DNA of 64,000 nucleotides from Verrucomicrobiota bacterium (GTDB taxonomy: Bacteria; Verrucomicrobiota; Verrucomicrobiia; Limisphaerales; SXQI01). Both the position numbers and the translations under genes were made by a program. The stretch spans positions 14,399 to 78,398 of the forward strand of contig JANRLX010000111.1 of the NCBI GenBank assembly GCA_033762115.1. The letters run 5' to 3'. The notes under the pieces were generated by a model. It made no database searches, was not told where the DNA came from, and saw only the letters and a program-made list of their open reading frames with translations. Numbering within the stretch: position 1 is the first letter of the stretch; the number at the start of each line of letters is the position of its first letter. Shown here piece after piece: positions 5,782-38,619 of the stretch.

Positions 5782-6795
5782 TTAATTTTCAACTGCAACG
5801 GAAGCCGATTGTTCTTCCTGCGCTGCCTTGAAGAGGATGGCAATATCATCCTCCAAACCTTTCTCATCTTTTTGATTGGGACCAACACTGTAAATCAAAT
5901 AAATCCTGCCGGTTCGTTGAAGCAGGAGTGCTTTTCCGGTGTACGGGTCCAGGGGAACACTCTTCATGTAATCGCCGGGCAATTGATCCAGAGATCGTAA
6001 AATTTTCCTCTCTTTTAAATCGTAATGACGAACAGCGGACGCTGCTGCAACTACTTCAAGGCGAGCCGTGGCAAGCTCCCTTTTGGCTTTGGTCTTATCA
6101 ATTATTCTTTTTTGGGAAATGCCCAATAATCTTAAGACACCCTCCAGGAGTTTATTCGGTTTTGATTTCAGCCTGAAGTATTCCTCTCGTTTTATGACCT
6201 CATCGAAATGAATCCTGCTGCTTTTCACAATCTCCAGTCCGGCTGCAAGCTCAGCAGATTCAGATAGTGAAAGTTTCTCCACCAGTTTCATGAGCGGTTC
6301 CAAAGCCATCGATTGAAGCGAGATCCCAACCAGAGCGGCAAGAATTGGGCCTTTTTCAGAAATCTGTCCTGCCTGAATCAATTGCAGGTAGGTTTGGGCG
6401 GCCTGGTTCCATTCCTTGTTCGCTTCCTCAAACTTGCCTTTGATACGATAGGCGTAGGCAATTTTTCTAAATTCAGACAAGCCAGAATTTGTCATTCCTG
6501 TAGGAGAATAAACGGATTCCGGCACTTCCCCTGGCAGGCGAACGGCCTCGGCGATTTGTTGAAATGCGAGCAGGTTATTCGTGACGAACTGCCCAAAATT
6601 ATTCGTCACCGTTGAAGGATTCTCGGTGAAGGAGTTGGCTGCCTTTACCAGCAAATCATAACTGTTCGGATTCGGAGCAGGCGGCAGCAGACTGCCTTCC
6701 GGTTCAGGTGTGGATGAGAGGTAGCCGAGGACCAGAATCAAGGCGATGATGACTCCGAGCGTGATCCATGTCCTCTTTTTTGGCTGCGAAAGCAT
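5782..6795 (-). CDS. Membrane-anchored helical hypothetical protein with a GspG-like C-terminal motif
   Basis: N-terminal TM helix; C-terminal PLDPYTGK..YLIYSVGPNQKDEKG..DDI. Confidence 0.7.
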   Translation of the reverse strand: MLSQPKKRTWITLGVIIALILVLGYLSSTPEPEGSLLPPAPNPNSYDLLVKAANSFTENPSTVTNNFGQFVTNNLLAFQQIAEAVRLPGEVPESVYSPTGMTNSGLSEFRKIAYAYRIKGKFEEANKEWNQAAQTYLQLIQAGQISEKGPILAALVGISLQSMALEPLMKLVEKLSLSESAELAAGLEIVKSSRIHFDEVIKREEYFRLKSKPNKLLEGVLRLLGISQKRIIDKTKAKRELATARLEVVAAASAVRHYDLKERKILRSLDQLPGDYMKSVPLDPYTGKALLLQRTGRIYLIYSVGPNQKDEKGLEDDIAILFKAAQEEQSASVAVEN

Positions 6796-6860
6796 GATTC
6801 ATTTTAAATAAGCATGCCTTCCCTGGCCAAGCTATTATGGGAGATGGTGTCGACTACTTT

Positions 6861-6980
6861 TCAGTTTGCTCTGGATTGGTGAAGACTCGGGATCAGGACA
6901 ATCAAGGTCAGGTAGAGAAGGGTGTAACCCAGGGTAATGCCAAATCCCGGAAGGACGCTGCGTTCCTTAAATCGGAGCAT
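6861..6980 (-). pseudogene. cysT: Truncated sulfate ABC permease CysT (first ~31 residues only)
   Basis: Hand translation MLRFKERSVLPGFGITLGYTLLYLTLIVLIP-SLHQSRAN*. SVLPGFG.TLGYTL.YL.LIVLIP is the CysT N-terminus; it starts 2 bp after the previous operon gene. Confidence 0.8.
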
Positions 6981-6982
6981 AT

Positions 6983-7849
6983 TTAAAGATTGGAAGCGTA
7001 GGCTTTCAATTTCCTGTACTCCGATAAAATCGAAATCAGAGCTGATACCAGAGCCCTTGTCTGCAGGAAAACAGGTGCTGCTTTCGGGGTAATCAGCTCG
7101 ATTTCGAAAGGTTTGGGCCGGATTTTGGGAGGACCACTTAAGGCGCCCTGATATTCAGCGCGAATAATTCCATTGCGGGATTGCAGTCCATCAATCAAAC
7201 CACTCTGCGCCAGCGGCAACAGTTCTCCGGCAGCTTTCAATGCAGGTTCGATCAGGTTCCGGGTCAATGTGGCCCCATGAACAAATCCGTGCATTCCATC
7301 TGACGAATCGCTGGAATGAAGGGAGACCATTCCATGAAAGGCGTGGCTGCAAATTTCCCGTTCAAGGAGTTCCACTTCAGGCTCCACCGAGTTGTTCCAA
7401 AACTCCCGGTTAAGATCTCTTCCCCGCCGTGAGCAACGAGTATTATCTTCATAACCAGTGGGGTTGCAGAGCGGATAAATGAACAGGCAAAAATCCTTCG
7501 CAATGGCGGGCTCTGACTCGATCACCTGGATAAATTGTGCCAGCGCAGACGGTCCTTCCGGTTCATTGCCATGAATCCCTGCAAAAATCCCCAGGCGAAT
7601 CGGATCGTCCCCCCCTTTTGGGCCGATGAAAATGTAACGAGGCAATCGATAGGATTGGCTATCGACCTCAAAACAGGGCAGAGGTTTTGATAAAAGGCTG
7701 TGCGAAGTGGTGGACAGCTTTTCCAGAGGCGCAAGAAAATCCTCTATGGATCGTCGGCTCGCACTCACGCGCGTTGCTCCTGTAGGCTGGTGGATTGAGA
7801 AGCTCATGCAATGTGGCATGATGCGGCCCTGCTGCCAGGGCCGCATCAT
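6983..7849 (-). CDS. M14 family metallopeptidase / succinylglutamate desuccinylase-like protein
   Basis: GIHGNEPEG (HxxE), NPTG..R, DLNREF and SLH motifs; start codon uncertain. Confidence 0.8.
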   Translation of the reverse strand: MMRPWQQGRIMPHCMSFSIHQPTGATRVSASRRSIEDFLAPLEKLSTTSHSLLSKPLPCFEVDSQSYRLPRYIFIGPKGGDDPIRLGIFAGIHGNEPEGPSALAQFIQVIESEPAIAKDFCLFIYPLCNPTGYEDNTRCSRRGRDLNREFWNNSVEPEVELLEREICSHAFHGMVSLHSSDSSDGMHGFVHGATLTRNLIEPALKAAGELLPLAQSGLIDGLQSRNGIIRAEYQGALSGPPKIRPKPFEIELITPKAAPVFLQTRALVSALISILSEYRKLKAYASNL

Positions 7850-14957: not shown

Positions 14958-15874
14958 TTCGGTATATCATCAGGAGAGTCCTCTTTTTGGTGCCGATGCT
15001 ATTCCTCATTAGCATGCTCGCATTTGCGCTGGTGCGGGTGGCGCCCGGAGGGCCGTTTGATAAAAACCGGCGTCCGGCTTCGCCCGAAGTGGAGAAACGG
15101 TTACTCGCCAAATATCATTTGGACAAACCCTTGTGGCGGCAATACCTCCATTATCTTGGTGGAATTCTGCAAGGAGATTTCGGTCCCTCCTTAAAACAAC
15201 GGCACCATAGCGTGAACGACATTATTGCGGAAGCGCTGCCTGTTTCTCTGGTACTGGGAGGGCTCTCATTTTCTTTGGCCATGGGCATTGGAATCCCGCT
15301 CGGTTTTTATACAGCCATCGGAAAAGGAAAATTGTTTGATTACACCGGCACCTTTATTTCCATCCTGTTCATCTGCGTTCCCGGATTGGTGCTGGGGCCG
15401 TTGCTGGTAATGATTTTTGCCATTCAGCTTCGCTGGTTTCCAGTGGGAATGCTGGGGAGCGCCTGGCATCTGGTGCTGCCGGTGCTGACGTTGGGAATTT
15501 ACTTTTCAGGACGAATCGCGCGGTTGATGCGGGAAGGGATGTTGAATGTCTTGTATTCCGAATTCATCATGACTGCTCGCAGCAAAGGGTTAAGTGAGAC
15601 AAGGCTTTTATGGAAACATGCGTTTCCGTTGGCAATCGCCCCGGTCCTTTCCTATTCCGGGCCGCTCCTGGCTGATTTGCTGACAGGCTCTTTCGTGGTG
15701 GAAACCATTTTTCAAATTCCAGGCCTTGGGATTCATCTGGTGAACAGTTCCCTGAGCCGTGATTACCCGGTGATCGTCGGTTTGGTGATTTTGTACGCGT
15801 TTCTTTTGATGCTGCTGAATCTCCTGGTGGATGTGATCCACGCCTGGATCGATCCTCGCGTGCAACTCGCTTAA
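14954..15874 (+). CDS. oppB: Peptide ABC transporter permease (OppB-like)
   Basis: APGGPF, GDFGPS, TARSKGLSE (EAA loop), C-terminal DPRV; ATGA overlap with oppA. Confidence 0.9.
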   Translation: MIRYIIRRVLFLVPMLFLISMLAFALVRVAPGGPFDKNRRPASPEVEKRLLAKYHLDKPLWRQYLHYLGGILQGDFGPSLKQRHHSVNDIIAEALPVSLVLGGLSFSLAMGIGIPLGFYTAIGKGKLFDYTGTFISILFICVPGLVLGPLLVMIFAIQLRWFPVGMLGSAWHLVLPVLTLGIYFSGRIARLMREGMLNVLYSEFIMTARSKGLSETRLLWKHAFPLAIAPVLSYSGPLLADLLTGSFVVETIFQIPGLGIHLVNSSLSRDYPVIVGLVILYAFLLMLLNLLVDVIHAWIDPRVQLA

Positions 15875-15895
15875 AAAGGTTCCTGTGACAAAAGG

Positions 15896-17830
15896 TCAAA
15901 GCGTGGGACTGATTTGTCCCGTGGCCAGCATGGCGCGAATTTTCTGGATCAATTCGTCTGCGGTATAAGGCTTCTGAAGAAATTCCAGTTTGCTGTCTTC
16001 GATTCCATTCTCTAGGGCCACATTCCGCGTGTAGCCTGAGGTAAACAGAACGGGCAATTCAGGCATCGTGGCCTGGATTTTTTTCGCCAGATCCGGCCCG
16101 CTCATCCGTGGCATGATCACATCGCTGAAGAGCAGACGAATGGGAAATTTTCGGCTTTCAATGATTTGCCAGGCTTCCTCCCCATTTTTCGCGGTGATGA
16201 CCTTGAAACCACTGCGGCGAAGAACCAGTTGCGCAAATTCGCGTAAACTCTCTTCATCCTCCGCGACAAGAATGGTTGGTTCGCTGTCAGTCGTCGGCTG
16301 TCCTGAACGAGCCGGTGGCAATGCGCGCTTTGGCGTTTCAATCCGAGGCAGGTATATCCTGAAAGTGGAGCCTCGACCCATTTCGCTGCTACAGGAGATA
16401 TGGCCCCCATGCTGGCGGACCATTGCGTAAACGGTCGCTAATCCAAGACCCGTGCCGGGTCCAACTTCTGTATGGTCGTAAAAAGGTTCAAAGACATGCA
16501 AACGCGCCTCGTCCGTTAAGCCGTAACCGGAATCAGTCATGCTCAAGGCCACGTAGTCACCCGCGGCAAGGTTTCCGATCATGGCGGCTTTTTCAGGGGG
16601 CAAGGTGACATTGTGGGTTTCCAGAACCAGTTTTCCACCCTCGGGCATGGCGTTGCGTGCCCTGACAGTAAGGTGGATGAGGACATTTTCCATTTGGGAA
16701 GCATCCGCATTGACACTTCCAAGTTCCGGTCCCAGGTAAGTCAGCAACTGCACTTTTTCACCAAGGAGGCGGGCAAGAAGGGAACGGCTCTGGGCGACCA
16801 ATCCATTCAAATCCATCGGTGCGAGGAGAATGGTTTGTTTCCGGCTGAGCGCCATTAATTGTTGGGTCAATGAAAAGGCTCTTTCAGCGCTGGAGGTGAT
16901 CTGTCCAACGTCTGTAACGAGTTTGTCTCCCGGAGGCAGGGCAGATTTGATCAAACCGGCATATCCCACGATGACGGTAAGCAGGTTATTAAAATCGTTG
17001 GCAACACCCCCAGCGAAACGTCCGATGGATTCCATGCGCTGCGTGTGTTGCAGTTGTTCCTCCAATCGCTTGCGCGAGGTCACGTCGCGACAAATAATCT
17101 GGGCGGCATTCTCCCCATGATAAGTAATGGCGCGAGCGATCGCTTCAACAGTCAGGATGGTGCCGTCCAACCTTAGAATCCGTTCCTCAAGTAACGGCCC
17201 ATCCGTGCCACTCATTGTCTGGCGTAAATGTTCAGTAACAAGATCCCGGTAATTGGGATCAATAAATTCCAGGAATGACTTGCCGACCAGGTCCAGGGGA
17301 CTTTGTGCGCCAAAAAGCTGCACGGCGGCTGGGTTCACATACACGAACTTGCCATCGCAACAAATGAACGTGGCTTCGGGAGAAGATTCAACCAGCCTGC
17401 GGTAACGTTCCTCGCTTTCCCGCAGCGCGAGATCAGCCTGTTTTTTTCGACGGCGCAGCGCCGCTTCACGAAGTTCCCGGTCAATTGCCGGTCCCAGCCG
17501 GGTCAAACGATCCTTCAGCAAATAATCGTGTGCTCCCGCCTTCAAGGCTTCGACAGCGGTCTCTTCACCAATTTTGCCGGAAACAATGATAAAGGGAACA
17601 TCATGGCCGGTTTGCTGGGTCATGGCGAGGGCCGCAAGACCGCTAAACTGGGGCAGAACATAATCGGAAATGATCAGGTCCCACTGTTCGGACAAGGCAT
17701 GCTGTAATTGCGCAGCGGATTCGACGCGAGTGTATGCGGCCTTGTAACCGGCGCGCTGAAGGGCGTGGATCAGGAGTTCGGTATCGTCCTTTGAATCCTC
17801 TATAATCAAAAGCTTTAATGGAACACTCAT
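15896..17830 (-). CDS. Hybrid REC-PAS-HisKA-HATPase-REC protein with a degenerate kinase core
   Basis: Both REC domains keep their Asp and Lys. H-box reads GGVANDFNNLL (His to Asn); N-box reads VLIHLTVRARNAM. Confidence 0.88.
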   Translation of the reverse strand: MSVPLKLLIIEDSKDDTELLIHALQRAGYKAAYTRVESAAQLQHALSEQWDLIISDYVLPQFSGLAALAMTQQTGHDVPFIIVSGKIGEETAVEALKAGAHDYLLKDRLTRLGPAIDRELREAALRRRKKQADLALRESEERYRRLVESSPEATFICCDGKFVYVNPAAVQLFGAQSPLDLVGKSFLEFIDPNYRDLVTEHLRQTMSGTDGPLLEERILRLDGTILTVEAIARAITYHGENAAQIICRDVTSRKRLEEQLQHTQRMESIGRFAGGVANDFNNLLTVIVGYAGLIKSALPPGDKLVTDVGQITSSAERAFSLTQQLMALSRKQTILLAPMDLNGLVAQSRSLLARLLGEKVQLLTYLGPELGSVNADASQMENVLIHLTVRARNAMPEGGKLVLETHNVTLPPEKAAMIGNLAAGDYVALSMTDSGYGLTDEARLHVFEPFYDHTEVGPGTGLGLATVYAMVRQHGGHISCSSEMGRGSTFRIYLPRIETPKRALPPARSGQPTTDSEPTILVAEDEESLREFAQLVLRRSGFKVITAKNGEEAWQIIESRKFPIRLLFSDVIMPRMSGPDLAKKIQATMPELPVLFTSGYTRNVALENGIEDSKLEFLQKPYTADELIQKIRAMLATGQISPTL

Positions 17831-17911
17831 ACCTCGCCTTCAAGGTTTTGCTATACGCTGATTTGTCCAAACCGGGCGCAAATTCCTCCAGAAATCCTTA
17901 CGGGTTATACA

Positions 17912-17927
17912 GGCATTTTGAGTGCCA
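17912..17927 (-). promoter_or_regulatory. Sigma-54 (-24/-12) promoter candidate
   Basis: TGGCAC-TCAAA-ATGCC on the minus strand with GG-N10-GC spacing, about 80 bp upstream of the ATG at 17830. Confidence 0.55.
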
Positions 17928-18050
17928 TCTTTGCACTGCAATTTTTGACCTGTTTTACTCCTTTCTCATTCAATCTACCAAAAAACAGGACAAAATTGTC
18001 CAGCTTTTGCACAAGGTCAAATCGCAGGAATGAGACGAATGCTGCTAGCT

Positions 18051-19550
18051 TTAAAGCACCGAATGTTCCCGGCGCCAAACCAGGTTCGTGGGAAGGGTCA
18101 GGAGAAAAGTTGTTCCATTCTTGCCGGTTCCTTCCAATTCGAGGGCTCCACCCATGTGATTTGCCAATTGCTTGCTGATCGCCAGCCCCAGGCCAGTCCC
18201 CCCTTCCTTCGTAGAGCGGCAGGGGGCAAACAGATTGGCTTTGATTTGCTCTGGCAGACCCGGACCGTTGTCAGAAATCCGGAAGTGAATTTGTCCTTCA
18301 ATCTCAGTGATGGAAAGCTCGACCTTTCCGATATTTGCCGGCAATGCCTGGACCGCATTCTGCAACAGGTTGACGAGGACGAGGATGATCAGGTTCGCAT
18401 TTCGATTGCTCAGTTGCCCCTGGGCATCTCCTTTGATGGATAAAGCAATATTTCCTTCCTGTGCAATCGGTTGCACCTTGGACTCGATCATCTGGATAAC
18501 TTCAGACAACGAAAGGTGATACGCGGTCTGCCCCTGTTCCTCCTGAAGGATGCGGACGATCTCGGCAATCATCGATTGCATTCGCTTGGTGGAGCTCAAG
18601 GCAGTTTGCCAGTCGCTTTCCCGAGGCGGGATTTTTTGTTCGAGTCGGCTGGAGGCGAGCAGTTGCAAACCGAAGAGCGGATTTTTCAACCCGTGGATCA
18701 GGTGAGCGGCGACAGCGCCAATGGCGGAAGTTTTCGCGGCGAGGGTTAGTTCATGGTTTGCATGCAACAGATCGGCAGTGCGTGCGCTCAGCTGTTCATT
18801 GGCATGTTGCAACCGTTGAAAGGCCCAGCCGACAGCGACGACAATCACCGTTCCGCCAATCGCAAAAAAAAGCAGGCCGTGCCGAAAGAGGTGCCGGTCC
18901 ATGACCGCAAATTCCCGGGCAACTCGTTCGCCGTTAAGCAGAAACTGAGCGGCGCCCAAAAAATGTTTTCCCGATTCGGCGTGCAGCGGAACGATGGCTT
19001 CAATCAATGGAAAAACCTGCGCTTCCCCGATCGGCTGCCGAACGGTGGGGTTGATGTCGGCTACCCGCGCTTTGGGGTGAAAGTGGCTAACGGATGCGAG
19101 GTTTTTCAATTTGAGGAGATCGTCACTTCCCAATTCTGAACGGGTAACACCACTGGGAAACGCAGTAATGAAACGCCCCTCGGTATCAAAAAGGCGTATG
19201 GCGCTGACTTCACCGCGGAATTCGGATGCTTCGAGAATCGCCCCCAACCTTGTTTGCGCATCAGTAAGGTCCAGGCCTTCCTGCTCAAGGGCCTTTTGGT
19301 TTACCACCGTGGCCGCATGGAGCACTTCACTGTCCTGTTGGAGAATCTGCTCCCTGAGGGTACGGCGCAAATCGGAGATGACCAGAATGATGCTTAACCC
19401 AAGCACTGCCAGGATCAGAGAGATGACCAGCGCGGGGATGATCTGCGGTTTGCCAAAGCGAAACAGGGAGCGGCGGGTTTGCGTTTCAAAGGACATTTTC
19501 CAGATCGCACGAATTTTGGGCAGTTCAATCAATCCGTCGATATTGATCAT
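18051..19550 (-). CDS. Membrane sensor histidine kinase
   Basis: Two TM helices around a periplasmic domain; IHGLKNPL H-box, NLLQNA, DNGPG and GGTGLGL; AGGAGAGG ribosome-binding site before 19550. Confidence 0.9.
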   Translation of the reverse strand: MINIDGLIELPKIRAIWKMSFETQTRRSLFRFGKPQIIPALVISLILAVLGLSIILVISDLRRTLREQILQQDSEVLHAATVVNQKALEQEGLDLTDAQTRLGAILEASEFRGEVSAIRLFDTEGRFITAFPSGVTRSELGSDDLLKLKNLASVSHFHPKARVADINPTVRQPIGEAQVFPLIEAIVPLHAESGKHFLGAAQFLLNGERVAREFAVMDRHLFRHGLLFFAIGGTVIVVAVGWAFQRLQHANEQLSARTADLLHANHELTLAAKTSAIGAVAAHLIHGLKNPLFGLQLLASSRLEQKIPPRESDWQTALSSTKRMQSMIAEIVRILQEEQGQTAYHLSLSEVIQMIESKVQPIAQEGNIALSIKGDAQGQLSNRNANLIILVLVNLLQNAVQALPANIGKVELSITEIEGQIHFRISDNGPGLPEQIKANLFAPCRSTKEGGTGLGLAISKQLANHMGGALELEGTGKNGTTFLLTLPTNLVWRREHSVL

Positions 19551-19603
19551 GGCTTAAATCCTCTCCTTGCACAATTCCCTGATTTGTGGGGCGTAAAAGC
19601 TTT

Positions 19604-19619
19604 AGCAAAGAGTGTGCCT
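19604..19619 (-). promoter_or_regulatory. Sigma-54 (-24/-12) promoter candidate
   Basis: AGGCAC-ACTCT-TTGCT on the minus strand with exact spacing, intergenic and upstream of the kinase gene. Confidence 0.65.
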
Positions 19620-19653
19620 TTGGGAACAGCGGGGAAAAACCTGATTTTCAGGG

Positions 19654-20745
19654 CTAAAATTCGTAATAAAAACCAGTTTCGACAATATGTGCCTGGTATT
19701 CATCTGAAACATGGTTGCCAGAACCCAATTCATAATTGTATTCCCCAAAAGCGGAGAGTTCCTTCCAAATTTTTTGTTCCGCCCTGAAGCCTGCACCAGT
19801 CTCGGAACGGCGACGCAACGGCGGATCAGGGGGTTGAATTGTTTGATTCTGGTAACTGTATTTTACGTATCTCCCTGAGAGAGAGACTTCTCCGGTTTCC
19901 CAGCGCCATGTGAGACCGGCGGTCAGGCGAAAGCGGTCATAATCGAAGTAACCGGGTCCATTGTCCCGGTTGAAAAGATACCCGGCCTTGAACCGGCCTC
20001 GGCATCTTCTGCGGGAATCAAAATTGTGACGGAGTTCCAGTTCTATCTCCTGCTGGGTAAATTCCAGGGAACTATCGGGAATAGCTGAGGAATCCAGTTC
20101 CAATTGTTCACGCTCATCATAAAAGCGTTTTCTCCAGCTAAAAGCCAAACTTGTTTCGGAGCGATGACCATACTTTCTTCCAAAGCGGAGCTTCTCTCCC
20201 CATTCCCAGGTATCATCAAGCGGAGACTCATAATTTTGACGGGCAGCGGGTAACTCGAGTTCCAGAAAATATTGTTGCCAATGCTTTTGTAAAATTGGGG
20301 TCAACCCCAGGGTGTGCGATTTTAACGGGAGGGATTCGAGATTGGTTGTGGTAATGGAAACATCCACAACCTGATCATAATAAAGATAATCCGCTTTGAT
20401 TCCTGCGATCCAGCCATTGGCAAAACCATACTTGTAATCGGCCTGGGCCAGGAGCAGTTGCTCTTTATTCACTGTGTCACTGGAAAGGTAGCGTTTGTCT
20501 TCCAAAGTAAGAAAAAATGTGAATTCATTGCTGTCATACGGCAGGCGGAAAAGGCTGGCATCAAGCATTCCTCGAATAAAAGCGCTTTTCTCATGGTTGA
20601 TCTCGGAATGGAGCACATTATCCGAGTAGCCGACGCTGCCGCCGACCGTTGCAAAATAATCCCATGATGATGGCTCAGCAGCAGCCAGAGCAGAGCCGCT
20701 GAACGGAATCAAGCAGACCAGGAGGAGTATGCGGATGAGATTCAA
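19654..20745 (-). CDS. Outer-membrane beta-barrel protein of unknown function
   Basis: Signal peptide, alternating amphipathic strands rich in aromatics, C-terminal YYEF. Confidence 0.75.
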   Translation of the reverse strand: MNLIRILLLVCLIPFSGSALAAAEPSSWDYFATVGGSVGYSDNVLHSEINHEKSAFIRGMLDASLFRLPYDSNEFTFFLTLEDKRYLSSDTVNKEQLLLAQADYKYGFANGWIAGIKADYLYYDQVVDVSITTTNLESLPLKSHTLGLTPILQKHWQQYFLELELPAARQNYESPLDDTWEWGEKLRFGRKYGHRSETSLAFSWRKRFYDEREQLELDSSAIPDSSLEFTQQEIELELRHNFDSRRRCRGRFKAGYLFNRDNGPGYFDYDRFRLTAGLTWRWETGEVSLSGRYVKYSYQNQTIQPPDPPLRRRSETGAGFRAEQKIWKELSAFGEYNYELGSGNHVSDEYQAHIVETGFYYEF

Positions 20746-20751
20746 TCAAAT

Positions 20752-20781
20752 AAAAAACCAGGCAAAGTTAATTTGCCTGGC
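20752..20781 (-). terminator. Rho-independent terminator after the Glu/Lys-rich gene
   Basis: Minus strand GCCAGGCAAA-ttaac-TTTGCCTGG followed by a T run. Confidence 0.7.
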
Positions 20782-20840
20782 TTTTGTTAAGTAACTTATT
20801 TCGAGTTGTCTAGCTTGGTGTGAACAGTTCCCAAATCATC

Positions 20841-21371
20841 TTAGTCGCGATCGCGTCCCCCGCGGCCCTCCTCGGCTTTCTCACTTTTAAATTTCCGGGT
20901 CTGTTCCTTGACTCTGTCCTTTGCCTCATCCAACTGTGCGGAGAATTGTTCCTTTAGGGCGTCCTTGCTCTCTCGCAATTTTGAAATGGTTTCCTTACGA
21001 TCTTCCCTGGAAGCCCCTTTTTTCTGCCGTTGAGTCTGTTTTTGTTGCTCGATAAATGCACGGCGTTGGTCCTCAAAGCTTTGAACCATTTCCTTGACGG
21101 CGGTGGGGGTTTCCGGGACGTCTGTTTTCTCAGGGCGTTCCGGCTTTTCCTGATTAGGCTTCTCTTCCTTCGGCTTTTCTTCCTTTTCGGGCTTTTCCTG
21201 TTTTTTCTCTTTTTCCGGTTTTTCGGATTTGTCAGGCTGGTCCCCGGCGGCCATCAACTCAACAGCACGAAGGTTGGCTGCCTGTGCATTGGCTGAGGTT
21301 CCAGCCATCAGGCCAAGTGCAAGAAGGGCAGCCAGCGTGCTAACTTTTAATCGATTGGTTTTCAAGTTCAT
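20841..21371 (-). CDS. Secreted highly charged protein with EKP repeats and a helical C-terminus
   Basis: Signal peptide ending ANA; repeated EKPEKE/EKPERPEK; Glu/Lys/Arg-rich helices. Confidence 0.8.
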   Translation of the reverse strand: MNLKTNRLKVSTLAALLALGLMAGTSANAQAANLRAVELMAAGDQPDKSEKPEKEKKQEKPEKEEKPKEEKPNQEKPERPEKTDVPETPTAVKEMVQSFEDQRRAFIEQQKQTQRQKKGASREDRKETISKLRESKDALKEQFSAQLDEAKDRVKEQTRKFKSEKAEEGRGGRDRD

Positions 21372-21438
21372 GGCGAAGGCTGGTCTTGAGCTTCCTGTTC
21401 GTTCATCGCTCCAAGAACAATCTCCACATTTTTGGATA

Positions 21439-21454
21439 TGCAGGCAGTGTGCCA
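21439..21454 (-). promoter_or_regulatory. Sigma-54 (-24/-12) promoter candidate
   Basis: TGGCAC-ACTGC-CTGCA on the minus strand with exact spacing, about 68 bp upstream of the ATG at 21371. Confidence 0.65.
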
Positions 21455-21560
21455 ACTATTTTATCCTATAAATGACCTTTTCGAGGTTCTTTTCTTAAGC
21501 GATTCTCTCGCAAGCCGTTTTTGTTTGGGGGAAAAGACCCAAACAGGTAGTCGTTAATTC

Positions 21561-22637
21561 TCAATCTGGCGCCGTTTCTCGTTTCGTCCCTTGCGCTGCC
21601 TGTCGGGCAAATACCTGGCGAATAATTTCTTCGATTGGGACTTCCTGAATATCGATATCAGAAACCGGCAATTCATCAAGCAAGGCTTTACAAACAGTGA
21701 TTACCCGGTCTCGACTGACCTTGAGTTTAACGCTGGCGCTGTTCTGTTCGACGACGGTCCCATATTTGGCAAGGGAGTCAGCATTGATCCGATCAGCGGC
21801 CTCACTTTGGATGGTGACCAGTTTGAAATCTGCGAAGCGGTCCAGGACTTCCTCCAGCTTGCCATCAAAAAAGATGCGGCCCTCATCAATAATGATGACC
21901 CGTTCACATAATTCCTGAATGTCCGCCATATAATGGCTGGTCAGGAGGATGGTGGTTTTGCGCCTGGTATTATGTGAGCGAAGAAATTCACGAACAGTTT
22001 TTTGTGAAATGACATCGAGCCCGATGGTCGGTTCATCCAGAAAAAGGACCTTGGGATGATGCAAAAGGGCAGCGATCAGTTCCATTTTCATCCGTTCGCC
22101 AAGGGAAAGCTCGCGAACCATGACGTTTAGCTTGTCTTTAACATCGAGCAATTCGGACATTTCATCGACAGTGCGGAGGAGTTCCGAATGGGAAATGCCG
22201 TAAATCCTGGCATTTAGTTCGAGGGATTCACGCGCAGGAAGATCCCACCAAAGCTGGTTTTTTTGGCCGAGGAGCAGGGCAAATTGTCGTCGGTACCCAT
22301 CATCCCGCTGCCATGGGGTGTAACCAAGGACTTTGGCGCTGCCTGAAGAGGGATAGAGAAGGCCAGCCAGCATTTTAAGAGTGGTGGTTTTGCCCGCGCC
22401 ATTCGGGCCGAGAAATCCGACGAATTCTCCCTCGGCGACCCGGAACGTGATATCGCGGGCGGCATGGGTTAACTCATATTCCCGTTTAAAAAGACCGCGC
22501 AATGCGCCTTTGAAACCAGGGTGCTTTTTGTAGGTGCGGTATGTGCGGGTAAGGCCCTCCACCTCGATGACCGGTTGGTGTCTGCTATCCACTTGCAGGA
22601 GCAGATTAGAGGGGCTTTTCCGCGATGCAAGTCGCAA
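21561..22637 (-). CDS. ABC-2 type transporter ATP-binding protein
   Basis: GPNGAGKTT, LSLGERMK signature variant, LFLDEPTIGLD and TSH motifs. Confidence 0.92.
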   Translation of the reverse strand: MRLASRKSPSNLLLQVDSRHQPVIEVEGLTRTYRTYKKHPGFKGALRGLFKREYELTHAARDITFRVAEGEFVGFLGPNGAGKTTTLKMLAGLLYPSSGSAKVLGYTPWQRDDGYRRQFALLLGQKNQLWWDLPARESLELNARIYGISHSELLRTVDEMSELLDVKDKLNVMVRELSLGERMKMELIAALLHHPKVLFLDEPTIGLDVISQKTVREFLRSHNTRRKTTILLTSHYMADIQELCERVIIIDEGRIFFDGKLEEVLDRFADFKLVTIQSEAADRINADSLAKYGTVVEQNSASVKLKVSRDRVITVCKALLDELPVSDIDIQEVPIEEIIRQVFARQAAQGTKRETAPD

Positions 22638-22640
22638 GGA

Positions 22641-24056
22641 TCAACGTTGCAACTGACGCTCCAATGCGCTGACAGTCTGCCGGACTGTAGCATCCACTTC
22701 CATGCGATCCTTCACCAGGCGGCAGGCATGGAGGACGGTCCCATGGTCCCGGCCGCCAAACGCTTCGCCAATGGTGTTCAGAGAGGATTCGGTCAGTTGC
22801 CGGGCAAGATACATCGCGATTTGCCGGGGAAAAGCAATGTTTTCGGGGCGTCGTTTGCTGGTCATATCCGCGACACGGATATCAAAATGTTCAGCGACCT
22901 TTTTCTGGATGACTTCAATGCTGATGGAAAAACGGCCTTCTTCGCTCAAGACATCCCGAAGCAACCCTTCGACCATTTCGACGTTCAGCTTTTTACCCGT
23001 CAAAGAGGCGTAGGAGGCAACCCGGATCAATGCGCCTTCCAGGCGGCGAATATTGGCGCGAATTCGCGTGGCCAGAAAATTGAGGACCTCCTCCGGAAGC
23101 TCGACCCCCATTGACTTCTCTTTCTTGCGGAGGATCGCCACACGGGTTTCGATATCTGGCGGCTGCATGTCAGTAACCAGCCCCCATTCAAAACGGGAGA
23201 CCAGACGATGCTCAAGATTTTGAATTTCCGCAGCGGGACGGTCGCAGGTCAGGACGATCTGTTTATGCGATTCGTGCAGGGCGTTAAAAGTATGGAAGAA
23301 TTCCTCCTGGATACGTTCCTTGCCGGCAAGGAACTGGATATCATCAATCAACAGCACATCAGACTGGCGATATTTTTTGCGGAACCGGACCAGTTGATTA
23401 TTCTGAATGGCATCAATGTATTCGTTGGTAAATTTCTCGGAGGAAACATAGGCCACCCGAGCACCTTTTTTGCTGCTGGCGACGTGTTGACCGATGGCAT
23501 GGAGCAAATGAGTTTTGCCCAGGCCCACCCCACCATAGAGAAAGAGCGGGTTATATGATTTCCCGGGGTTTTGTGCGACAGCGAGGGCTGCGGCGTGGGC
23601 AAAGTTATTATTATTGCCGACGACAAACGTCTCAAAGGTGTTTTTTGGGTTGAAGAGCAGGTCACGTTCTTTCCCGGAATTGGCCGCGGGGTGACGTTCC
23701 TGCGCCTCCTCATGAAGCACCTCCACCACCCGATTATCGGTGCGGGATGAGGAGGCAAGCTGCTGGTGGGAGGATTGGTTCGAGACCTTGAACTTCACAA
23801 GCAGTGAGCGGCCTGCGGAATGGGCAAGAACATCCTGGATCAAACCAAGATAATTGTCCTTGAGCCAGAGTTCACAAAAATCGTTGCTGACTTCGAGAGT
23901 GAAGGCATCCTCTGATACGCTTGCAGCCCTGATCGGGGCGAACCAAAGGTTGTAAATTTCTGCGTTGAGGATCGAGCGGAGTAACTGTTGGGAAGCCGTC
24001 CAGATTTTATCAGCTGGAAGTTCCATTGGGGCAGAGGTTTTCACCGATTTATTCAC
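22641..24056 (-). CDS. dnaA: Chromosomal replication initiator DnaA
   Basis: YNPLFLYGGVGLGKTHL, LLIDDIQF, QEEFFHTFN, RLVSRF and FGGRDHGTVLHA motifs. Confidence 0.97.
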   Translation of the reverse strand: MNKSVKTSAPMELPADKIWTASQQLLRSILNAEIYNLWFAPIRAASVSEDAFTLEVSNDFCELWLKDNYLGLIQDVLAHSAGRSLLVKFKVSNQSSHQQLASSSRTDNRVVEVLHEEAQERHPAANSGKERDLLFNPKNTFETFVVGNNNNFAHAAALAVAQNPGKSYNPLFLYGGVGLGKTHLLHAIGQHVASSKKGARVAYVSSEKFTNEYIDAIQNNQLVRFRKKYRQSDVLLIDDIQFLAGKERIQEEFFHTFNALHESHKQIVLTCDRPAAEIQNLEHRLVSRFEWGLVTDMQPPDIETRVAILRKKEKSMGVELPEEVLNFLATRIRANIRRLEGALIRVASYASLTGKKLNVEMVEGLLRDVLSEEGRFSISIEVIQKKVAEHFDIRVADMTSKRRPENIAFPRQIAMYLARQLTESSLNTIGEAFGGRDHGTVLHACRLVKDRMEVDATVRQTVSALERQLQR

Positions 24057-29929: not shown

Positions 29930-30985
29930 GTGAACAGTATCAAGGGCCGTGGCGCCGCGGAAAATCCTGCCAATCGTTTCGAGGAGATTCATCTCCAGAG
30001 GGACATCGACTGGAACCCGGAGGACGATGGCCCGCTGCATACCCGCATTTTTCACGACACCACGCAAAAGATCATCAATTACAATGACAGCCCTGACGTG
30101 GGATTTGATGCGAGCGTGAATCCGTATCGCGGTTGTGAGCATGGCTGCATTTATTGCTTCGCGCGTCCCACCCATGAATATCTGGGGTTCTCATCCGGGC
30201 TGGATTTCGAAAGCAAAATCATGGTCAAGCTGGATGCGCCAACTCTGCTGCGCAAAGAGCTTTCCTCACGCTCATGGAAACCGCAGGTGATCGTGATGAG
30301 CGGGGTTACGGATTGCTATCAGCCACTGGAACGTAAATTGCGCCTGACACGCGGCTGCCTGGAAGTCCTGGCGGAGTTTCGCAACCCGGTCTGCATCATC
30401 ACCAAAAACCATCTTGTGACTCGTGATGTGGAACTTTATGCGGAACTGGCGCAATACCAGGCCGCTGCGGTGAATATTTCCATCACGACGTTGGACCCGG
30501 AATTGACCCCGATCCTTGAGCCGCGCGCATCGCTGCCAAGAATGCGCCTGGCGGCAATCAGGGAACTGAGTGCTGCCGGGGTGCCGGTCGGCGTCATGGT
30601 CGCGCCGGTGGTCCCGGGAATCACGGATTTCGAGATGCCGCAGATCGTTGCGGCGGCGGTTGAAGCCGGGGCAAAGTTTGCCGGATATGTGCCGGTGCGT
30701 TTGCCTTACGCGGTAAAGGATTTGTTTGATACCTGGTTGCAACGGCATTTTCCTGACCGCAGGGAAAAAGTGTTGAATGGCATTCGCGCCTTACGTGACG
30801 GAAAATTGAACGATCCCAACTTTGGATCGCGCCTGGAAGGGAGCGGACCTGCTGCGGAACGGCTTTCAAAATTATTTGAAGTGTCCTGCCGAAAGGCCGG
30901 GTTGCCCAATGAACGATCAAGCCTTTCGACGGCGGCATTTCGGGTGCCTTCCGGCCCGCAGATGCTTTTACAATTGCAAGGTTAA
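29930..30985 (+). CDS. PA0069/Rv2578c family radical SAM protein (SplB-like)
   Basis: NPYRGCEHGCIYCFAR (CxxxCxxC) and TDCYQP motifs; GTG start inferred. Confidence 0.9.
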   Translation: MNSIKGRGAAENPANRFEEIHLQRDIDWNPEDDGPLHTRIFHDTTQKIINYNDSPDVGFDASVNPYRGCEHGCIYCFARPTHEYLGFSSGLDFESKIMVKLDAPTLLRKELSSRSWKPQVIVMSGVTDCYQPLERKLRLTRGCLEVLAEFRNPVCIITKNHLVTRDVELYAELAQYQAAAVNISITTLDPELTPILEPRASLPRMRLAAIRELSAAGVPVGVMVAPVVPGITDFEMPQIVAAAVEAGAKFAGYVPVRLPYAVKDLFDTWLQRHFPDRREKVLNGIRALRDGKLNDPNFGSRLEGSGPAAERLSKLFEVSCRKAGLPNERSSLSTAAFRVPSGPQMLLQLQG

Positions 30986-33275: not shown

Positions 33276-35420
33276 TCAGAAGCGGAAACGAAAAGCCGAA
33301 GACAAAATGTGCGCTTCGTAATCATTGCGACCTCCGAAGGTCTTATCAGACAAGGTGACCCACCCGTATTTGAGGGTCCATTGCATCGCACTGCTGAATC
33401 GATGTATCAGCGTCCCGGTGATCCCATGTTCCTCCGCCGACACCAAAAAGGGCACACTGACTGCCGAATTGTCAGAGAAGTTATCCGCATAGTACGTGAA
33501 GTATTGCGCCAGCAGATCAGTCTTTTCCGTCAATGCGTACCCCGCAGTTGCGGAGGCATCGATATAATCCTGGATCGATTTTTGTACCGCATTGGCTTGT
33601 CCGGCACTCGTGCTGAATGGAGTCTGGGTACGGTCCAGAACGTAATTCACCGCAGCCTGGAGGAGCAACCGTGGCAAAGGCGTCCAGGTAATGCTCTCTC
33701 CAATGATGTGTGAAGTCATCTCTGCGCTTTCCACTTCGCTCAATCGATCCATCCGGCTGTTGATCGTTGAAATCTGGAAATCATATCGAGTCACCAGCGA
33801 CAGCGATTGGATTGGTCGAAGGCTTATCCGGAAATTAATATCATCCGTGGTGAAATCCTGGTCACGAATGTAAGCGGGGTAACGATCACCACCTGTATTT
33901 AAAGTGCCGTCATTAGTGTGATCATAATCATTCCGGCGTTCCTTGTGATAGTATTGCGCGGCAAGATTCAATCCCGCTTTTGGATACCAGTTTGCGCCTG
34001 CAACATACTTTTGAGTAAAGCGTGTTGAATCGCTATCTCGAGAGATGGAAACCACCGGAGGCACTCCGTCCTCCAGCACCATTTCCCGTTCTCGCAGATC
34101 GCCATCACCCTGCAGCCATTCACCGCGGACATACAACACCCAGTTGGTGAGCCCCGTATAACGCGCTTCCAATCCTTCACTCACATCCACAAAGCTGCGT
34201 TCACGCGTGTTCTCGATGGCTTCAATGATCGCTGGCAAAGCCGGTGGTCCACCTACATTCGTTTCTTCAAAATCCGAAATTCCATCCTGCTCCTGTTTCT
34301 CGGCCCGGATGGACGGCACAATGGTGAGGTTCTCCCACGGCTCAAGCATTAAGTTCAAGTTCAGCACATGCTGATCGATTTTGGACCCTCCGGAGAGATC
34401 GAAAAATCCTTCATCACGCTGCTGCCGTCGTGCAAAGAGAGGGTCATATAACGCGTCATAATCAGCACCGTAAATGCGACTGCCGCCGATATCGGTGTCC
34501 AGCTTTGTGAGAGAGTAACCAGTCGTGAACAGGATTTTTTCGGAGAACCGTGTTTCCTGAAAAGCCCGCACGTTGAACAGATCTGTCTCTACGATTTCCC
34601 GTTGGGTCAAAAAGCGGTCTTGCGCCTCGCCCGGACGTCGTCGCATGTTACGCGAGTTGTCCTGGTCGGAATGTTCATAGCGTAATCCGACTCCAAATCT
34701 GGTATCCGCGATCGTATGTTCGCCATCCAGCCTGAGAATATCCCGATCTTCGTCGAGATTATAAAAACTCGGCACTATCCCACGCGTTTGCCCGGCAGGT
34801 AAGCCAAGTCCGGTATCTCCCCAAATTGTTGAGTCCTTTTGGCCGTCTCGGGTTTGGCGCGAGTAACCAAAGCGAATAATCGGCGCGTCCGGTAAGGTCA
34901 ACCCGCCTTCAAAGAACAGTTCGCTCCGGTCAACGAATAGTTCGTCATCGTACAGATCAAAAACCCGATCGTTGATCGGCAGATATCCTCCGGTACCATC
35001 ATACCAGGTACGAAACTCCCGGTAACCAGCCCGTAGGTAACCATAATCCGGATGTTTATATCCCAACGTTAAGGAATAATCGTCATTGTCGAAGATTCCC
35101 CGGCCATCCACTTCCAGGAGCCCTTTAGGCCCGACATCCTGTTCGTAATGGAAATCGGTAACCCCTCCATAGACATCTTTCGGGATCTGATGTCTCTCCA
35201 TGAACTGGGCTTCGTTTCCCTTGATAAAATTCCCACCAATGGAAACTTCAAGCCAGTTCCTGTAATCTGTTTCTTTTTTGGTTTCTAATTTAGGCGCTTC
35301 TGGCTCGGCTTTGACTGTCTGCTTCTCTTCACCAGCTGCCAGTGCAGCGCTGCACAGGCATGCCGCGGCGCATGCTCTCCTGAGACTGGCTTTTATCCAC
35401 CGTGTTGAACTTGTTTTCAT
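33276..35420 (-). CDS. MtrB/PioB-like outer-membrane beta-barrel
   Basis: 714 aa, signal peptide, amphipathic strands, terminal FRFRF; lies directly behind an MtrA-like gene. Confidence 0.82.
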   Translation of the reverse strand: MKTSSTRWIKASLRRACAAACLCSAALAAGEEKQTVKAEPEAPKLETKKETDYRNWLEVSIGGNFIKGNEAQFMERHQIPKDVYGGVTDFHYEQDVGPKGLLEVDGRGIFDNDDYSLTLGYKHPDYGYLRAGYREFRTWYDGTGGYLPINDRVFDLYDDELFVDRSELFFEGGLTLPDAPIIRFGYSRQTRDGQKDSTIWGDTGLGLPAGQTRGIVPSFYNLDEDRDILRLDGEHTIADTRFGVGLRYEHSDQDNSRNMRRRPGEAQDRFLTQREIVETDLFNVRAFQETRFSEKILFTTGYSLTKLDTDIGGSRIYGADYDALYDPLFARRQQRDEGFFDLSGGSKIDQHVLNLNLMLEPWENLTIVPSIRAEKQEQDGISDFEETNVGGPPALPAIIEAIENTRERSFVDVSEGLEARYTGLTNWVLYVRGEWLQGDGDLREREMVLEDGVPPVVSISRDSDSTRFTQKYVAGANWYPKAGLNLAAQYYHKERRNDYDHTNDGTLNTGGDRYPAYIRDQDFTTDDINFRISLRPIQSLSLVTRYDFQISTINSRMDRLSEVESAEMTSHIIGESITWTPLPRLLLQAAVNYVLDRTQTPFSTSAGQANAVQKSIQDYIDASATAGYALTEKTDLLAQYFTYYADNFSDNSAVSVPFLVSAEEHGITGTLIHRFSSAMQWTLKYGWVTLSDKTFGGRNDYEAHILSSAFRFRF

Positions 35421-36610: not shown

Positions 36611-38473
36611 TTATTCCACGGTGACACTTTTTGCGAGGTTGCGCGGTTTATCCACGTCGCAGCCGCGGCAGACTGCGATATGATAGGAGAGCAGTTGGAG
36701 GGGGATCACCCCGAGTAACGGAAAAATCGATTCAATCGTCGGGGGGACATAAATCACATCCTCAACCAGCGAGGTGATGGACTCATTCCCTTCCGTGGCG
36801 ATGGCAATGACCGGGCCTTTCCTGGCTTTGATTTCCATGAGGTTGCTCAAGGTTTTGTCATAGAGACCATCACTGGGAGCGAGGATGACCGTAGGGGTTT
36901 TCTCATCGATCATGGCAATCGGCCCATGCTTCATCTCTGCGGCGGGATACCCTTCCGCATGGATGTAGGAAATTTCCTTCAGCTTCAACGCTCCTTCCAA
37001 TGCGACAGGAAAAGTGTATTGCCTGCCGAGAAAGAAAAAATCCTCCGCTGCCGCATACTTTTGGGCGAGGGTTTTAATCCTGTCGTTTTGCGCTAGAATT
37101 TTTTCGATTTGGGACGGGACTTGCTCAAGGGCCTGGAGCACCTGTGAACCGCGCCGGGAGGACAAGGTGCGGATACGGCCCATCAGCAGCGCGAAGAGGG
37201 TGAGAACAGTGACCTGGGAGGTGAATGCCTTGGTGGAAGCGACCCCGATTTCCGGTCCCGCATGCAGGTAAATCCCGCCATGCGCTTCCCGGGCGATGGT
37301 GCTTCCGACCACATTACAGATGGAGAGGACCGGATGCCCGCGCCGTTTTGACTCCCGCAAGCCAGCCAGGGTATCGGCGGTTTCCCCGGATTGGGTGATG
37401 GCCAGGATCAAGGTGTTTTTTTCGATTGGAGCATTGCGGTACCGAAATTCACTCGCGTATTCAACTTCAACAGGGATGCAGGCGAGGTCTTCGAAAAGAT
37501 ACTCGCCCACCAGGGCGGCGTGCCAACTGGTGCCGCAGGCCACGATCACGATTTGATCCACCGCGCGAAGCTCAGCGAGCGAGACGTTCAAGCCGCCGAA
37601 TTTGGCAGTCACTTCTTCGCGATCAATCCGCCCGCGCATGGCATTCTGGACAGTGCGCGGTTGCTCAAAAATTTCCTTGAGCATGTAATGCGGAAATTCC
37701 CCCTTTTCACTTGCCTCAGCGTTGAATTCAATCTGGCTGATCTGGACTTTGGCGGTGTCCGAACCCAGGTTGTTGACGGAAAAATTATCTCGGGTCAACG
37801 TCGCCACATCATAATCATTCAGGTAGACGACCTGGCGGGTATGAGCAACGATTGCGGTGGCATCGCTCGCGAGGAAATTCTCACCTTCACCCACCCCGAT
37901 AATCAAGGGAGAGCCGCGCCGCGCGCCAACAATAAGTTCCGGGTGATCGGCGGAAATAACGGCAATACCGTAAGCGCCGATGACCTCCTTTAAGGCGTTC
38001 ATCACCGCCTGTGTCAGGATGTGGGTACCGTTTTGGGATGGTTTCGCTTTGAGTTTGTCGTAATGGCTGCCGATCAGGTGTGCAAGCACTTCAGTGTCGG
38101 TGGCGGATTTAAATGTATGCCCTTCCTGAATGAATCGTTCCTTGAGTCGGTCGTAGTTCTCGATAACGCCATTGTGGACAACGGCGATGCGCCCGCTTTC
38201 ATCCGTATGGGGATGGGAATTTTCGTCATTTGGGGGGCCGTGGGTGGCCCAGCGCGTGTGGCCAAGGCCGGTGTCACCGCTCAAGGGTGAGGAGGAGAGA
38301 AGGCGGGCGAGCCCTTCATCGATTTTCCCCTTCTTTTTGCATGTGTGGAGGGTTTGATCGCGGAGAACTGCTATTCCAGCGCTGTCATAACCCCTGTATT
38401 CCAGGCGTCGAAGCCCTTCCAGAATAATGGGGGCTGCCTGTTTTTTTCCCACATAACCGATAATTCCACACAT
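36611..38473 (-). CDS. glmS: Glutamine-fructose-6-phosphate aminotransferase
   Basis: MCGIIG start, LEYRGYDSAG, GHTRWATHG, QSGETADT and PRNLAKSVTVE motifs. Confidence 0.98.
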   Translation of the reverse strand: MCGIIGYVGKKQAAPIILEGLRRLEYRGYDSAGIAVLRDQTLHTCKKKGKIDEGLARLLSSSPLSGDTGLGHTRWATHGPPNDENSHPHTDESGRIAVVHNGVIENYDRLKERFIQEGHTFKSATDTEVLAHLIGSHYDKLKAKPSQNGTHILTQAVMNALKEVIGAYGIAVISADHPELIVGARRGSPLIIGVGEGENFLASDATAIVAHTRQVVYLNDYDVATLTRDNFSVNNLGSDTAKVQISQIEFNAEASEKGEFPHYMLKEIFEQPRTVQNAMRGRIDREEVTAKFGGLNVSLAELRAVDQIVIVACGTSWHAALVGEYLFEDLACIPVEVEYASEFRYRNAPIEKNTLILAITQSGETADTLAGLRESKRRGHPVLSICNVVGSTIAREAHGGIYLHAGPEIGVASTKAFTSQVTVLTLFALLMGRIRTLSSRRGSQVLQALEQVPSQIEKILAQNDRIKTLAQKYAAAEDFFFLGRQYTFPVALEGALKLKEISYIHAEGYPAAEMKHGPIAMIDEKTPTVILAPSDGLYDKTLSNLMEIKARKGPVIAIATEGNESITSLVEDVIYVPPTIESIFPLLGVIPLQLLSYHIAVCRGCDVDKPRNLAKSVTVE

Positions 38474-38619
38474 AAAAACTCTCGCGCGAAAATGCGCCTC
38501 ATCAAAACGCAATACGTTCCTGGTCGCGCCGGGTGAGAAAAATCTCCTGTTGCCCCTTGCACTACCCCTGATCGGAAGGGTATATCAGCAGCAACAGTTC
38601 GCAAGCAAAGGATGAGGTT

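Follow-up and report, generated by a model that had tools for sequence, protein, structure and literature searches.

Genes A, B and C lie next to one another on the minus strand of a 64,000-nucleotide (nt) stretch of DNA, hereafter the window, from a Verrucomicrobiota bacterium (assembly GCA_033762115.1, contig JANRLX010000111.1, positions 14,399–78,398 of the forward strand). They are probably what remains of an envelope signalling module of five genes under sigma-54 control, whose complete form encodes an NtrC-type enhancer-binding protein (EBP), a secreted protein (A), an outer-membrane barrel (B), a sensor histidine kinase (C) and a propeller protein (P). The five-gene module is widespread among Verrucomicrobiota relatives, yet undescribed. 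It is concentrated in the order of the host and is lineage-restricted rather than phylum-wide. A fourth gene, D, adjoins the other three on the same strand and encodes a hybrid kinase devoid of the phospho-acceptor histidine; by comparison with its orthologues D appears to be a separate neighbour, equipped with a sigma-54-type promoter of its own, and no member of the module. A preliminary description of this DNA had merged all four genes into a single cassette served by three sigma-54 promoters. The features that it recorded are present where it had placed them, well above chance level.

The case for the module comes from 80 related loci drawn from a public genome collection. The gene order EBP-A-B-C-P is found in 30 of the 80, and the remainder are truncations or permutations such as E-B-C-A-P and A-C-P-B. 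Among the 71 loci with sufficient flanking sequence, 59 have C as the gene directly behind B and eight more have it elsewhere in the locus. P is positioned downstream in 41 of 59 loci and upstream in five others. The preliminary description had proposed a synteny search for a linked NtrC-type regulator, and the relatives provide one: an EBP gene lies upstream in 49 of 65 loci. In a first set of relatives, C adjoins B in 16 of 19 loci and an EBP of REC-AAA-HTH_8 architecture lies upstream in 12 of the 19. D, by contrast, adjoins the module in none of the 80 loci. The cassette therefore stands as far as A, B and C are concerned and loses D: the conserved unit is EBP-A-B-C-P. Relatives of barrel B are present in 20 of 40 genomes of the same order or family, as against only 12 of 300 other genomes in an even phylum-wide sample, which argues that the module is restricted to a lineage. 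Searches of open-access full texts for sigma-54 in Verrucomicrobia or Verrucomicrobiota brought up no description of such a system.

In the genome under study (3.92 Mb, 134 contigs, 95% complete) the genes for the EBP and the propeller are found away from A, B and C. The EBPs linked to the module in 12 relatives converge on a single gene on contig C52, with 60–74% identity and the next paralogue at no more than 41%. The propellers of 13 relatives likewise all match a single gene on contig C11, with 34–44% identity. Both genes are internal to their contigs and flanked by unrelated genes, and on the window contig A is preceded by a gene for an ABC ATPase and by dnaA: the separation is thus real and does not reflect an assembly break. 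The EBP encoded on C52 looks intact, with the receiver Asp and the motifs that we take to be the Walker A and the GAFTDA loop. The genome contains one PF04552 match (207.6 bits), and hence the rpoN gene that the preliminary description presupposed, together with nine PF00158 matches above 200 bits that denote true EBPs. No sigma-54 activator is found on the window contig, every PF00158 match being located elsewhere. The activator had already been reported missing from the window; the comparison adds that it is unlinked in this genome only, its orthologue being that on C52.

The surroundings of the scattered genes have features of their own. Upstream of genes A to D comes the gene for a DrrA-like ABC-type ATPase (21561–22637, minus strand) and then, as the second gene upstream, dnaA (22641–24056, minus strand), so that the module remnant is close to a probable replication origin region. 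On C52 the stop codon of the EBP gene overlaps a gene for a NarL-type response regulator with REC and GerE domains (L142:2321–2953, minus strand), which suggests that this regulator is a new operon partner acquired by the EBP after rearrangement.

Sigma-54 promoters conform to the consensus TGGCAC-N5-TTGCW, and candidate elements were scored by the number of positions matched (maximum 11), with a fixed spacing of 10 nt between the GG and GC doublets. The putative promoter of A, P_A (TGGCAC-N5-CTGCA, TGGCACACTGCCTGCA; 21439–21454, minus strand), scores 10 of 11, with 67 nt between it and the ATG of A. A palindrome of the form TGGG-N8-CCCA (21524–21543, core 21526–21541), a candidate enhancer or upstream activating sequence, precedes the 5' end of P_A by 87 nt. 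With a weight matrix built from 59 sites of relatives only, this palindrome reaches 16.3 bits, against a training median of 17.8, and ranks ninth among 164 genome matches of at least 11 bits. Within 15800–21700 no second palindrome is found at P_A and none near the elements upstream of C and D, the next best match scoring 6.9 bits. The palindromes of the relatives cluster near −145 and −102 and have the consensus GTTGGGGAATATTCCCCAAC.

The same arrangement recurs in the relatives. Of 62 loci, 53 have an element with a score of at least 9 in the 600 nt that precede A, when ~0.07 would be expected, and in 46 of those 53 a GGG-N8-CCC palindrome is found 40–170 nt further upstream. These counts include loci in which A comes after C, and since the element precedes A even there, the promoter belongs to A. 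Counted from the EBP gene instead, the gap that follows it contains a sigma-54 element with a score of 9 or more (maximum 11) in 39 loci out of 50. Past A, the fourth intergenic gap, between A and B, contains the terminator that had been noticed there before: an intrinsic one with a 14-pair stem followed by a T-run (20753–20785, minus strand). A GC-rich hairpin and T-run follow A in seven of the 11 loci examined, the focal one included. The conserved design read from these comparisons is predicted to consist of an enhancer, a −24/−12 promoter, gene A and a terminator, followed by B, C and P.

Two other places in the genome, on contigs C18 (~6640–7553; L140) and C118 (~37648–38540; L141), combine a family-type palindrome (15.5 and 14.5 bits, respectively) and a sigma-54 element that scores 11 on C18 and 10 on C118, the two being 108–155 nt apart. 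The genes downstream encode a product of 219 amino acids (aa) that fits no family and one of 240 aa assigned to DUF7354, and the sites may represent extra regulon members of the C52 EBP.

Besides P_A, elements of the same type are found ahead of C and D. P_C (AGGCAC-N5-TTGCT, AGGCACACTCTTTGCT; 19604–19619, minus strand) scores 10 of 11 and is placed 54 nt before the ATG of C, and P_D (TGGCAC-N5-ATGCC, TGGCACTCAAAATGCC; 17912–17927, minus strand) scores 9 of 11 and is separated from the ATG of D by 82 nt. The bare pattern GGCAC-N6-TGC occurs five times in the window versus 2.63 expected, and 10 of 100 shuffles attain five. Three of the five are the sites noted earlier (17913–17926, 19605–19618 and 21440–21453), all on the minus strand and in gaps upstream of genes. 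Genome-wide, 93 sites with a score of at least 10 are distributed over 7.84 million strand-nt (~0.0012 per 100 nt) and 898 sites have a score of at least 9 (~0.025 per 220 nt). Sites scoring at least 10 are enriched outside genes, with 22 intergenic and 71 coding in a genome that is ~10% intergenic according to a crude map of open reading frames (ORFs); for a score of 11 the figures are four and one. Given this rarity, three such elements in successive short gaps, each on the strand of the genes, are not attributable to chance. The earlier count of three promoters thus holds for the elements, which are sigma-54-type with scores of 10, 10 and 9, but not for the family: relatives use one promoter, and P_C is peculiar to this genome.

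Gene A (20841–21371, minus strand) encodes a 176-aa protein made up of a signal peptide, a disordered linker rich in Lys, Glu and Pro, and a C-terminal helical hairpin at residues 90–169. The hairpin, aligned with 11 relatives, is modelled with a predicted local distance difference test (pLDDT) score of ~90. No Pfam or NCBIfam family accommodates A, and a profile search against solved structures returned only unspecific coiled coils, among them RecA linkers and Rop. A comparison of 12 A-family members with 25 listed Pfam families gave no match to ZraP, CpxP or Spy at E ≤ 1, and these three are also absent, at E ≤ 10, from the solved-structure profile search with A. Fold searches with the hairpin produced generic helical matches (Foldseek E ≥ 3.5), and the best VIA Z-score of 8.9 is below the bar for helical folds. 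The proposal that A is a member of a known family was accordingly rejected, as Pfam, NCBIfam, the structure profiles, Foldseek and VIA-wide searches disclosed nothing specific.

Modelling of the envelope proteins together had been suggested in the preliminary description, and A and the kinase were modelled as a pair. When residues 85–176 of A were combined with residues 62–226 of C, the sensor domain, each with its own alignment, the interface score ipSAE (interaction prediction score from aligned errors) was 0.74, compared with 0.12 for the best control. That mark is attained by 116 of 157 solved complexes and by two of 215 mismatched pairs in a benchmark whose counts are rough because own alignments were used. 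The runs agree on at least 66% of contacts and the pLDDT of the partner is at least 63. The interface is contributed by residues 88–114 of A, corresponding to helix 1, which is the best conserved stretch of the A family. The model supports binding of A helix 1 to the periplasmic sensor domain of C, whereby A would be the periplasmic partner of its own kinase, and suggests a feedback loop of the CpxP or ZraP kind.

Gene C (18051–19550, minus strand) encodes a sensor histidine kinase of 499 aa that spans the membrane twice and has its periplasmic domain at residues ~60–226, with HisKA and HATPase domains recognized by Pfam. His286 is invariant in 13 aligned sequences, HATPase_c scores 78.7 bits, and the protein qualifies as a classical HisKA kinase. 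In NCBIfam, C is below the cut-offs of ZraS, AtoS and PrsK, and the EBP is below those of ZraR, AtoC and PrsR. The fifth component, P, is a periplasmic multi-blade propeller of ~700 aa with weak DUF6242 repeats (Pfam) and no named family: phmmer found nothing among solved structures, and a profile search of the same structures only the designed 'Cake' propellers.

Gene B (19654–20745, minus strand) encodes a 363-aa outer-membrane beta-barrel of 16 strands that belongs to no named family. The model has a pLDDT of 88.2 and a predicted template modelling score (pTM) of 0.81. B matches no Pfam family at E ≤ 0.01 and no NCBIfam family, and does not attain the gathering score of BBP2_2 (PF10082). 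A structure search of the Atlas retrieved BBP2_2-like (PF10082) clusters with a template modelling (TM) score of 0.74 and TPR-barrel fusions with TM scores of 0.79–0.81; the Atlas also points to unnamed Verrucomicrobiota clusters. Among solved barrels the VIA-wide search placed CdiB at Z 20.4 (root-mean-square deviation 4.8, 288 residues aligned), general porins at 19.0–19.3, PelB at 16.7 and BcsC at 15.5. Assignment of B to a named porin family was rejected, as Foldseek and VIA-wide searches returned only generic barrels of 14 to 18 strands with near-tied scores. The start codon of B is a TTG directly after the T-run of the terminator, and B would therefore depend on read-through. A weak hairpin of five pairs with a T-run (19640–19652, minus strand) is found just past the stop codon of B.

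Gene D (15896–17830, minus strand) encodes a 644-aa cytoplasmic protein of REC-PAS-HisKA-HATPase-REC architecture. Its H-box reads GGVANDFNNLL, where a paralogue has GGVAHDFNNIL, and the phospho-acceptor His is thus missing, in keeping with the designation of D as a pseudokinase in the preliminary description. The same Asn replaces His in eight of ten orthologous loci, the focal one included, with one Thr and one locus unmatched by the search pattern. The motifs that are presumably those of the ATP lid look intact in the sequence. D thus represents a conserved His-less family rather than a decayed gene. Its orthologues in sister genera (45–62% identity) are encoded on contigs other than that of the module (for instance C24 versus C13 in G002), and in five of five places examined they are solitary among unrelated metabolic genes. 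An element with GG-N10-GC spacing and a score of at least 8 of 11 is present within 120 nt of the start in eight of nine orthologues with enough upstream sequence, compared with 0.068 expected, although the orthologues are kin and the fraction overstates their independence. Since D is beside the module in no related locus, has unrelated neighbours and possesses its own sigma-54-like element, it is to be viewed as a neighbour and not as a member.

Three other explanations deserve to be weighed. One takes genes A to D as a single functional cassette, in which feedback on the envelope module comes from the His-less D. In its favour, all four genes adjoin one another on one strand, three of them have sigma-54-type elements, and the two receiver domains of D could accept phosphate. 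This explanation is nevertheless very improbable, in view of the absence of D from all 80 related loci, the residence of its orthologues on other contigs and the association of the sigma-54-like element with D itself; moreover, P_D is not accompanied by the family palindrome. The feedback through a dead hybrid kinase that had been proposed earlier thus finds no comparative support. A different view makes the module primarily an export device: B would serve as a channel for secretion or export, of the two-partner secretion or exopolysaccharide-porin type, A or a polymer would be the cargo, and the kinase and EBP would be mere regulators. The solved barrels nearest to B include CdiB, PelB and BcsC, the Atlas matches include TPR-barrel fusions and BBP2_2, and A would fit as a strongly expressed secreted product. 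Yet general porins score for B much as CdiB does (within 1.4 of its Z-score), neither Pfam nor the model reveals a POTRA or TPR part in B, no glycosyltransferase or polymerase genes flank the module in the scanned loci, and in the complex model A docks to the kinase and not in a channel. Little probability can be assigned to this view.

The remaining explanation, unlikely but less so than the other two, concerns the promoters: P_A alone would work, P_C and perhaps P_D would be functionless look-alikes, and B and C would be expressed, as in relatives, from transcripts that run past the terminator. It draws on the want of conservation of P_C, the distance of P_C and P_D from any family palindrome, and the fact that high-scoring matches also occur within genes (71 coding versus 22 intergenic). 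On the other side, a score-10 match in a gap of 103 nt has an expectation of ~0.0012, P_C is positioned shortly before the ATG of C and past the small hairpin and T-run that close B, and the position and type of P_D are common to eight of nine orthologues. The B-C gap itself differs from those of the relatives, in which B and C are tightly packed, as here a small hairpin and T-run come first and the 10-of-11 match follows. P_C is thus probably a lineage-specific promoter that would free C from the terminator, although it may have no activity, or depend on a different EBP.

Several points weigh against the module reading and the mechanism that is built on it. P_C has no counterpart, a site with a score of at least 9 being found in the B-C interval of only one of 60 related loci, and it lacks a nearby family palindrome (best match 6.9 bits, ~335 nt upstream). 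P_A itself is preceded by one palindrome when many relatives have two. The pairing of C with its EBP extends across contigs and is deduced from the orthologues. A displays no likeness in sequence to CpxP, Spy or ZraP in the searches run and only generic helical matches in fold, and its feedback role derives from gene logic and one complex model built with own alignments. The resemblance of the C sensor domain to a single Cache domain (sCache_3_2) is a lead from the Atlas. Finally, no ribosome-binding site is seen for B, whose TTG follows right after the terminator, and its level of expression is uncertain.

If the module reading is adopted, the following mechanism can be proposed. C would sense through its periplasmic, probably Cache-like, domain and phosphorylate the cognate EBP encoded on C52, a relay postulated because the orthologues are encoded side by side. 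The EBP would bind the TGGG-N8-CCCA palindrome upstream of P_A, a motif grammar that emerges from the comparison, and activate RpoN polymerase. The main transcript would stop at the terminator after A, which would make the secreted hairpin protein the chief output. B would be reached by read-through, and C would have, in this genome, its own acquired sigma-54-type promoter. A helix 1, on docking to the sensor domain of C, would then feed back on signalling, with a sign that is suggested by analogy with CpxP-CpxA and ZraP-ZraSR. At a guess, the conserved partners B and P serve to let in or display the envelope signal. A broader reading, possible but put forward tentatively and with less assurance than the module itself, regards the EBP, A, B, the Cache-type kinase C and the double propeller P as one trans-envelope device of the Planctomycetota–Verrucomicrobiota–Chlamydiota (PVC) bacteria: B and P would bring an envelope or extracellular cue to the kinase, A, the sigma-54-driven product of that kinase, would clamp the sensor as a built-in anti-kinase, and the whole, hitherto undescribed, would obey a fixed grammar of tandem TGGG-N8-CCCA enhancers, −24/−12 promoter, A and terminator.

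The closest parallel in logic is ZraPSR, an envelope stress system of Escherichia coli and Salmonella that depends on sigma-54. According to PMC4987338, ZraP is a periplasmic accessory protein in the sigma-54-driven ZraSR circuit, on which it acts back. Both systems combine a kinase and an NtrC-type EBP with a sigma-54 promoter and a small periplasmic product, and A is the constant sigma-54 target of the module. The analogy drawn in the preliminary description is sound at this level, all the more as the model supports binding of A to the kinase. The components differ, however. A has no ZraP, CpxP or Spy match; C scores 83.7 against a cut-off of 479 for ZraS (NF007688) and the EBP 263.3 against 760 for ZraR (NF007689). 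The module is co-directional whereas Zra is divergent, it adds a barrel and a ~700-aa propeller, and its enhancer motif is different. CpxP, from the Cpx response to envelope stress, is, according to PMC6737893, a highly induced periplasmic helical protein that inhibits CpxA, probably by contacting the sensing domain. The modelled placement of A helix 1 on the sensor domain of C is reminiscent of this pair, but Cpx has an OmpR-type regulator and sigma-70 promoters, and A is no CpxP homologue in the tests run.

PrsK/PrsR, associated with PEP-CTERM, resembles the present pair in being a sigma-54 two-component system of environmental Gram-negative bacteria. PrsK (TIGR02916) is the best NCBIfam match of C and PrsR (TIGR02915) the fourth-best of the EBP, but C scores 101 against a cut-off of 300, with the kinase core only (residues 248–487) involved, and the EBP 290.3 against 502.6. 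For gene D the relevant comparison is with pseudo-histidine kinases of the DivL type, which have lost the phospho-acceptor His and are still conserved (PMC4211667, PMC9430884); conservation of a kinase-like protein despite this loss implies a signalling role other than autophosphorylation. D is similarly conserved though His-less. Unlike DivL, it has Asn instead of Tyr, is cytoplasmic and has receivers at both ends. Its best NCBIfam match is CckA, with 404 against a cut-off of 1000.

Signalling in Verrucomicrobiota is almost unexplored. If the broader reading of one trans-envelope device is right, its parts are still working in this genome though scattered over three loci. The module offers a regulon grammar, two unannotated protein families (A and B) and a testable pair of kinase and accessory protein. 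An outlying carrier, Pontiella sulfatireligans F21, is in culture, which makes bench tests possible. The His-less hybrid kinase family of D constitutes a second, separate lead. A caution for annotation also follows: adjacency in one genome can be misleading, as the four-gene unit is unsupported by comparison.

A few minor features complete the picture. The inverted repeat that had been noticed upstream of the last promoter is present, and its arms, TTTGACCT (17944–17951) and AGGTCAAA (18014–18021), are exact, 8 nt long and separated by 62 nt; the element thus spans 17944–18021, upstream of P_D. The octamer TTTGACCT is found seven times in the window versus 2.2 expected. As regards a possible role of the repeat as a conserved enhancer of D, TTTGACC is present upstream of two of five aligned D orthologues, at other distances, in an alignment of six upstream regions that is poor. 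Between the arms, after the stop codon of C, the palindrome GGACAATTTTGTCC is followed by a T-run (17988–18001, minus strand) and may either form a terminator-like hairpin or serve to bind a protein. Within B, a perfect palindrome, ACCGGG-N8-CCCGGT (19951–19970), accounts for the weak matrix match of 6.9 bits upstream of P_C and could be due to chance. The two remaining GGCAC-N6-TGC matches of the window (33451–33464, plus strand, and 30935–30948, minus strand) are probably chance occurrences as well; the former has GGCACACTG in common with P_A and sits within a long minus-strand ORF. In one genus of relatives an extra ORF of 84–93 aa, which the window lacks, is inserted between the sigma-54 promoter and A (L027:11345–11626, L029:8049–8303 and L032:10792–11046), and its products share the motif LVNLTLDWEL...ERESLRDSA..YRKC.

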